Shown: positions 44,055 through 44,091 of the stretch, one piece after another | Numbering within the stretch: the first letter of the stretch is position 1 | How the letters are laid out: every line of letters starts with the position of its first letter | Source of the DNA: Escherichia coli | GTDB lineage: Bacteria; Pseudomonadota; Gammaproteobacteria; Enterobacterales; Enterobacteriaceae | Direction: 5' to 3' (one strand) | DNA: 64,000 bases | NCBI RefSeq assembly: GCF_022846255.1 | Contig: NZ_AP025682.1 | Notes under the pieces: model-generated | Seen by the model: only the letters and a program-made list of their open reading frames with translations | The model's database searches: none | What the model was told of the DNA's origin: nothing | Program-made: the position numbers and the translations under genes

Positions 44055-44091
44055 GTTAATTTTACTAATTTTCATATTTAGTAAAATTAAC
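44055..44091. repeat. 14-bp inverted repeat (GTTAATTTTACTAA, 9-bp spacer) in the AT-rich yadN upstream region
   Basis: Read directly: GTTAATTTTACTAA ttttcatat TTAGTAAAATTAAC about 180 bp upstream of the yadN start; entirely A/T-rich, so an operator-like site rather than a terminator. Confidence 0.5.

Follow-up and report, generated by a model that had tools for sequence, protein, structure and literature searches.

The arrangements to which the repeat described here can most readily be compared are the operators and switches of other surface-structure operons. Fimbrial operons are commonly controlled by Lrp, whose consensus binding sequence is YAGHAWATTWTDCTR. At switches of the fimS type, inverted repeats precede the gene for a fimbrial major subunit, and dimeric helix-turn-helix regulators, such as SlyA, act at dyad operators, that is, at AT-rich palindromes near the promoters of cryptic, H-NS-silenced surface-structure operons. 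Natural quasipalindromes, in turn, are hotspots of templated mutation in Escherichia coli. Here, we describe a perfect inverted repeat upstream of yadN, which encodes the major subunit of the Yad fimbriae and is the first gene of the yad operon. The repeat lies in a 64,000-nucleotide (nt) stretch of E. coli DNA (assembly GCF_022846255.1, contig NZ_AP025682.1), the whole of which we refer to as the window.

In strains CFT073 and EC958, H-NS represses the yad operon and human serum induces it, and the serum-induced fimbriae aid tissue colonization in bloodstream infection (PMC13245861, 2026). Yad expression is also responsive to temperature and oxygen (earlier work on temperature and ArcA is cited in the same paper), and the authors note that the means by which H-NS silencing is overcome was not identified in their study (PMC13245861). 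Chromatin immunoprecipitation data for CFT073 are cited in the literature, and the evidence for H-NS is regional, not at the resolution of individual sites; the K-12 spacer between folK and yadN is likewise listed in the literature as an H-NS-associated “promoter island”.

We tentatively favor the reading that the yad repeat is a dyad-symmetric, putative binding site for a protein, placed where the yadN promoter begins on its upstream side, with a conserved core as its working part that has been lengthened in the B2 lineage. It is an ordinary kind of element, not described before at the yad locus, and its sequence was not found printed in the literature searched on the locus. Its parts are as follows.

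Positions 44053-44068, no strand assigned: left arm, AAGTTAATTTTACTAA, the perfect complement of 44078-44093, with 10 of its 16 positions invariant over four allele families.
Positions 44069-44077, no strand assigned: spacer of 9 nt, TTTTCATAT, with the dyad center at 44073.
Positions 44078-44093, no strand assigned: right arm, TTAGTAAAATTAACTT, the outer end of which overlaps the candidate -35 element.
Positions 44060-44082, no strand assigned: conserved 23-bp dyad core, TTTTACTAA-N9-TTAGT in the window and TTTTACTTAATTTTGAATTAAGT in K-12.

The arms are 16 nt each and are complementary at all 16 positions, their extension being ended by mismatches on both flanks. The first-pass annotation of this DNA had recorded 14-bp arms around a 9-bp spacer at 44055-44091, while allowing that the arms might prove to be mismatched on re-reading. 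Computational re-extraction recovered this unit as the inner 14+9+14 of the longer repeat, and the 16/16 pairing excludes a mismatch. Each arm contains two G/C in 16 positions (88% A+T), and 44053-44093 is the longest perfect inverted repeat of the window when spacers of up to 20 nt are considered. When the 362-bp intergenic region was shuffled 5000 times with its dinucleotides preserved, no repeat exceeded 13 nt (repeats of at least 12 nt occurred at P = 0.004), in agreement with the earlier judgment that such a repeat would be unlikely by chance even in AT-rich DNA. The repeat is real and non-random, and not a chance outcome of A+T richness.

An allele census of the folK-yadN region over 5426 complete E. 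coli genomes gave the following families.

B2-type (this window, CFT073/Nissle, UTI89, and E2348/69): 560 genomes, ~10% of E. coli.
K-12-type: 3101 genomes.
X1, at 95% identity or more: 554 genomes.
X3, at ~84% identity to X1: 463 genomes.
O157-type: 424 genomes.

X1 is the allele of EC958, a strain of sequence type 131 (ST131), and the published EC958 check primer matches X1 only. The X1 family, and a further family, X2, came from a metagenome scan.

The dyad axis lies at one aligned position in five homologous families (B2-type, K-12-type, X1, X2, and X3). At distances of 5-20 from the center, the number of complementary positions out of 16 is 15-16 in B2-type alleles, 12-15 in K-12-type alleles, 9 in X1, and 8 in both X2 and X3; in K-12 itself, perfect arms of 11 bp enclose a loop of 3 nt. 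Among 11 distinct alleles, 83% of the symmetric cells pair, compared with 30-53% when the partners are slid by 1-3 columns. The core takes the form TTTTACTWA...TWAGT, with ACTWA-N9-TWAGT in common, and its left half reads GCTTA in the O104:H4 and ST131/X1 alleles. It is invariant at 19 of 23 positions among K-12, X1, X2, and X3, where it ties with the ribosome-binding block as the best of the spacer, and at 13 of 23 once the B2-type is added, which makes it the third-best block. C44065 and G44081 are invariant and form symmetric G:C islands amid A/T sequence. Two features expected of an operator were thus found, namely dyad symmetry (16/16 pairing here, and an axis kept in five families) and conservation above background (19/23 for the core, compared with 42% invariance over the folK-yadN spacer as a whole).

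The arms behave differently from family to family. In B2-type alleles, two of the 32 arm positions vary, compared with 91 of 336 (27%) elsewhere (12 distinct alleles; Fisher p = 0.009), and these two, 44055 and 44091, pair with each other. In the same alleles, the 9-nt spacer varies at three of nine positions, which is the background rate. Long arms are specific to the B2-type, the outer arms being without conservation in X1-X3, and the ST131-type alleles retain a core of 5-6 bp only.

The O157:H7 spacer could not be aligned globally, and none of its perfect repeats is as long as 8 nt. It does hold ACTTAATTTACATTTTAGT at a comparable distance from the ATG, and a profile trained without the O157 allele returned this site as the top non-training match in 200 kb (E-value of about 0.02). 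The best local alignment of the O157 spacer falls on the repeat region, at a p of only about 0.06. Together, these comparisons are suggestive of a related site in the O157-type allele.

The position of the repeat relative to the promoter can be approached from a published reporter and from a computed scan. The dyad center is 197 bp 5′ of the yadN ATG, and the relevant features are these.

Positions 44041-44245, plus strand: equivalent of the 205-bp CFT073 Pyad-lux reporter fragment, from the S3 Table primers (PMC13245861) mapped to 44041-44065 and 44220-44245.
Positions 44114-44119, plus strand: candidate -10 element, CAAAAT here and CACAAT or TACATT in other families, from a position-weight scan.
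Positions 44091-44096, plus strand: candidate -35 element, CTTCCA, weak, at the outer end of the right arm, from the same scan.

The CFT073 reporter was ~6-fold over the empty vector in the wild type, was ~100-fold higher in an hns mutant, and was inducible by serum (PMC13245861). The fragment contains the whole repeat and starts 12 bp upstream of it, its forward primer annealing on the left arm itself, so that the literature on this fragment places the repeat, at regional resolution, within the H-NS-repressed region. Because the 205-bp fragment is active and begins 12 bp before the repeat, the repeat must either coincide with a functional yad promoter or lie upstream of it. The position-weight scan, which covered ten alleles from four homologous families (B2-type, K-12-type, X1, and X2) and is computed only, found a single promoter-like element that occupies one and the same alignment column in every one of these families, with its -10 at 44114-44119. 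In CFT073/Nissle-like alleles the -35 reads TTGCAT, and in K-12 it reads TTGTTC, in both cases one base downstream (the equivalent of 44092-44097, with a 16-bp spacer), and the computed distance between -35 and -10 is 16-17 bp across alleles. This implies a predicted start near 44126, which would put the dyad center near -53.

If the repeat is an operator, its functional unit would be the central ~19-23 bp, ACTWA-N9-TWAGT, and a dimeric or oligomeric DNA-binding protein would occupy this core immediately upstream of, and touching, the yadN -35 region. Once bound, such a protein might obstruct or recruit RNA polymerase, or it might act with or against silencing by H-NS. The 16-bp perfect arms would be a lineage-specific extension in B2-type alleles, and what keeps them alike would be selection on the sequence, template-switch “palindrome correction” at replication, or the two together. 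Protein binding, the identity of the protein, the position of the promoter, and the direction of the effect are all matters that we infer. A more specific proposal, which we consider quite unlikely, is that the dyad is the operator of a regulator that counters H-NS and mediates the rapid induction of Yad by serum or the host in extraintestinal pathogenic E. coli, with the allelic forms (16-bp perfect in CFT073-like B2 strains, a 6-bp core in ST131) setting the thresholds of expression. The repeat offers a discrete, conserved, and symmetric target of 19-41 bp for work on how the silencing of Yad by H-NS is overcome in the host, and its natural alleles, with perfect, imperfect, and core-only repeats, are ready-made variants.

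As to which regulator might bind, we scored 14 consensus sequences against shuffles (Lrp, ArcA, CpxR, SlyA, H-NS, IHF, Fis, CRP, FNR, RcsAB, NarL, OmpR, TyrR, and LexA). The best fits were to TyrR, at 10/12 (P = 0.02), and to Lrp, which each arm matches at 13/15 (P = 0.04), and neither survives correction for 14 tests. There are also differences from the Lrp sites of fimbrial operons: the AG of the Lrp consensus is not kept in other alleles (12/15 in the Nissle-type and 10/15 in K-12, by hand counts), the yad spacer is without GATC, and the two Lrp-like matches at yad are 26 bp apart. The high-affinity motif of H-NS is the 10-bp sequence TCGATAAATT. As for SlyA, its sites are described as TTAGCAAGCTAA or TTA-N6-TAA (PMC5797941), and yadN is reported in the literature to rise 2.4-fold upon SlyA over-production. 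However, the yad repeat matches the SlyA consensus at 8/12, which is no better than shuffles, and has a different half-site spacing.

We also compared the upstream regions of nine K-12 chaperone-usher or ecp promoters (fim, sfm, elf, yeh, yfc, yra, ygi, ybg, and ecp). A regular expression for the dyad matched in yad alleles only, with no match upstream of these nine operons, and the sequence profile gave nothing below E = 0.1 outside yad loci. The search for the same motif at other fimbrial operons, which the first-pass annotation had proposed, therefore came back empty in the nine K-12 regions by both methods. A look-alike upstream of ygiL in K-12 (TTTTACTTAATCGATATTTAG, locus L058, 7278-7298) was set aside, since 151 of 1000 shuffles align locally at least as well and the likeness is therefore not significant. 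The sequence AATTGCA does occur at a similar distance upstream of the dyad-like sequence at both ygiL and yad.

Several results weigh against an operator. None of the 14 consensus sequences is significant after correction, and the best match to the H-NS 10-mer is 7/10 (shuffle P = 0.74). The absence of the motif upstream of the nine other K-12 operons means that there is no support from a regulon. The arms of K-12-type alleles vary at the background rate (5 of 32 positions), and since ST131-type alleles have a core of 5-6 bp and retain repression by H-NS and induction by serum, long arms are unnecessary for the known inputs. Covariation is modest, with changes on both sides in 5 pairs compared with 3.7 in shuffles, and the caveats of the tool apply; in O104:H4, both partners of one pair are changed, to the non-complementary G/A. 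The promoter position is computed, from weak scores of 3-5 bits, and a stricter scan of 43850-44330 found no sigma-70 site. The proposal in the first-pass annotation, that the repeat is a candidate operator or nucleoid-protein site, therefore stands in part: it is plausible for the core, given the reporter fragment, the adjoining promoter-like element, and the conserved axis and core, and it does not carry over to the full 14-16-bp arms. We infer that the operator idea applies to the core and not to the long arms, and even for the core it stays tentative, because there is no significant fit to a consensus, the motif was not found upstream of the nine other K-12 operons, and the long arms are not the conserved unit.

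The main rival, which we judge to be unlikely, is that the repeat is a quasipalindrome without function. Quasipalindromes tend to be “corrected” by template switching. On this account, a chance repeat in AT-rich, H-NS-coated, and poorly transcribed DNA would form a hairpin during replication, template switching would lengthen and perfect its arms without selection, and the core would be conserved only through its proximity to the promoter. As with natural E. coli quasipalindromes, the yad alleles range from imperfect to perfect (16/16, 15/16, 13/16, 12/16, 9/16, and 8/16 arm positions paired), and paired and clustered changes restore complementarity. The pair 44055/44091 is G:C in the window, E2348/69, and SCU-484 and T:A in 2009C-3133, and this change coexists with a G/A intermediate in Nissle, UTI89, and STEC299. 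The pair adjacent to the loop is A:T in the B2-type, T:A in the K-12-type, and T/T in the O157 allele, and between K-12 and MS6198 there are two adjacent substitutions, TT to AA, both of which restore complementarity and which resemble a single templated event. The unconserved arms of the K-12-type, and the dispensability of long arms for known regulation, also sit well with this account. Such paired changes fit selection for symmetry and template-switch correction equally well. Conversion of the arms alone, however, should allow paired changes at the background rate, yet the B2-type arms are less variable than that (p = 0.009, as above). Moreover, few blocks of this hypervariable region are as well conserved as the 23-bp core, and a possibly related site is detectable in the O157-type allele. 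The quasipalindrome is, in addition, a description of mutational behavior and not of function, whereas the yad core is also conserved in sequence. Were the repeat nonetheless inert, it would remain a clean case, in natural E. coli populations, of a quasipalindrome whose arms have undergone compensatory and clustered changes.

An alternative that we regard as very unlikely is a DNA structural element, in which a cruciform driven by negative supercoiling, or melting, would alter local topology at the yadN promoter or the way in which nucleoid proteins such as H-NS or HU bind there, and would thereby act as a sensor of supercoiling or temperature. The repeat is predicted to fold strongly as a single strand, both as DNA (-11.7 kcal/mol, z = -7.7) and as RNA (-14.9 kcal/mol, z = -7.5). 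A loop of 9 nt, on the other hand, is unfavorable for cruciform extrusion on general grounds. In B2-type alleles the arms are conserved while the loop is free to vary, and there is one compensatory pair, as a structural element would have it; the responsiveness of Yad to temperature and oxygen (PMC13245861) points the same way. The predicted energies of the DNA hairpin, however, differ widely among alleles.

This window: -11.7 kcal/mol.
MS6198: -12.2 kcal/mol.
Nissle-type: -8.9 kcal/mol.
K-12: -8.6 kcal/mol.
O104:H4: -5.6 kcal/mol.
X2: -2.3 kcal/mol (z = -0.6), no better than shuffles.
X1: -1.5 kcal/mol (z = +0.3), no better than shuffles.

The hairpin is thus strong here and in MS6198, and its potential is not conserved, although regulation is similar. 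Given that X1 is without a hairpin, yet EC958, which carries X1, is regulated like CFT073, a hairpin or cruciform cannot be the common mechanism. The element common to the alleles is the core sequence.

Equally improbable, in our estimate, is an RNA hairpin, acting either as a 3′-end stabilizer or processing site on read-through transcripts of pcnB-folK, or as a hairpin in the yadN leader. The stable RNA fold given above is in its favor, as is the retention of G-T (G.U) compatibility on the plus strand at some positions in X1 and X2. Long perfect hairpins between a co-directional gene and a fimbrial operon do occur in K-12, in the upstream spacers yehE-yehD, sixA-yfcV, and agaI-yraH. Those hairpins, however, start 10-79 nt past the upstream stop, have arms of 67-69% A+T (31-33% G+C), and are followed by a T-run after yehE only, whereas the yad repeat lies 146 nt past the folK stop, is 88% A+T (12% G+C), and has no T-run; they look like 3′-end structures of the upstream gene and not like relatives of the yad repeat. 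Since the promoter-active fragment begins 12 bp before the repeat, the yadN mRNA made from its promoter cannot hold the full hairpin. The hairpin is also lost in X1 and X2, and a known structured RNA was rejected, the best Rfam overlap scoring 17 bits (E = 8.8) against a gathering score of 100.

Other identities were considered and rejected. An intrinsic terminator is excluded because the stem is not G+C-rich (two G/C per 16-nt arm) and there is no T-run, the stem being followed by CCATATG; no terminator-like site was found in 43850-44330. A fim-type invertible switch shares with yad the presence of inverted repeats upstream of a major-subunit gene. It differs in that the yad arms are 9 bp apart, so that nothing can invert, there is no recombinase among the annotated neighbors, and Yad is described in the literature as not phase-variable. 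The earlier view that the repeat is neither a terminator, for want of a GC stem, nor a fim-type switch was therefore sound on both counts. A pap-type Lrp/Dam methylation switch is not supported either, as 43908-44269 contains no GATC and the 13/15 Lrp match is not significant after correction. None of the annotated yad neighbors is known to be homologous to PapI or PapB. A repeated or mobile element (a repetitive extragenic palindromic element or bacterial interspersed mosaic element, a miniature inverted-repeat transposable element, or the end of an insertion sequence) was dismissed, given that the 55-mer containing the repeat is present at one locus in each of 567 genomes; the two “places” counted per genome arise because a palindrome matches on both strands. 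The arm sequence is found nowhere else in the 64-kb window, and there was no match for the repeat among 72,556 plasmids.

The genes that frame the repeat are the following.

Positions 42013-43431: pcnB, upstream of folK.
Positions 43428-43907, plus strand: folK, the upstream co-directional gene, whose stop lies 146 nt before the repeat.
Positions 44270-44860, plus strand: yadN, with a product that begins MSKKLGF.

The gene order is pcnB, folK, the 362-bp spacer (26% G+C), yadN, yadV, and htrE, which confirms the earlier placement of the repeat upstream of yadN. Further annotated neighbors are hrpB, thpR, sfsA, dksA, and gluQ on the side of pcnB and folK, and yadMLKC and panBC on the side of yadV and htrE. 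The housekeeping flank is 99.7% identical to that of E. coli STEC299, and the K-12 reference has no annotated feature of any kind in the folK-yadN spacer.

Elsewhere in this spacer, the best-conserved block over divergent families is at 43922-43942 (AATATAAATATATTCCGAAAA), 15-35 nt past the folK stop, where 18 of 21 positions are invariant. It holds a small palindrome, GAATAT-N4-ATATTC, and matches an RcsAB box at 11 of 14 positions. In E. coli 20Ec-P-124 (locus L013), an ISApl1 element (IS30-like) sits in the spacer ~70 bp upstream of the yad palindrome. The part of the spacer next to folK has been replaced by the insertion, whereas the palindrome and the promoter region are intact.

Downstream of the palindrome, 44143-44157 (GTAATACTTAGTAAA) is a 9/10 match to the direct repeat GTAAA-N5-GTAAA of the CpxR/OmpR type. 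It is kept in the K-12, X1, and X2 alleles as GTAAA or GTTAA, N5, and GTAAA or GTAAC, and is a candidate site for a response regulator. An exact 9-nt direct repeat, CATGGCATT, is present at 44102-44110 and 44196-44204, 94 bp apart and within the promoter-active fragment, and could be due to chance. A second hairpin, at 44200-44232 (GCATTGCAT-N15-ATGCAATGC), lies 38-70 nt 5′ of the yadN ATG. In 2009C-3133 its 3′ arm reads ATGCGGTGC, and the two A-to-G changes keep G.U pairing on the plus strand only, which hints that the yadN leader may form a hairpin as RNA.

The yad operon and its control region fall into at least six very divergent allele families in E. coli, the spacer of the O157-type being unalignable, and the operon of the window is ~78-81% identical to those of the X1 and X2 alleles. 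Despite this strong polymorphism at folK-yadN, pcnB-folK is 95-99% identical in nearly all genomes. The X2 contigs have housekeeping genes that are only 89.5-93% identical to those of the window, which suggests another Escherichia lineage, and the same allele is present in one genome labeled as E. coli (2020CK-00188). The pattern suggests that long-term diversifying selection and recombination have acted at the yad adhesin locus. Finally, the runner-up among the perfect inverted repeats of the window, at 24379-24405 (ATGTGCCGGATA-GTT-TATCCGGCACAT), has 12-nt arms of 50% G+C.
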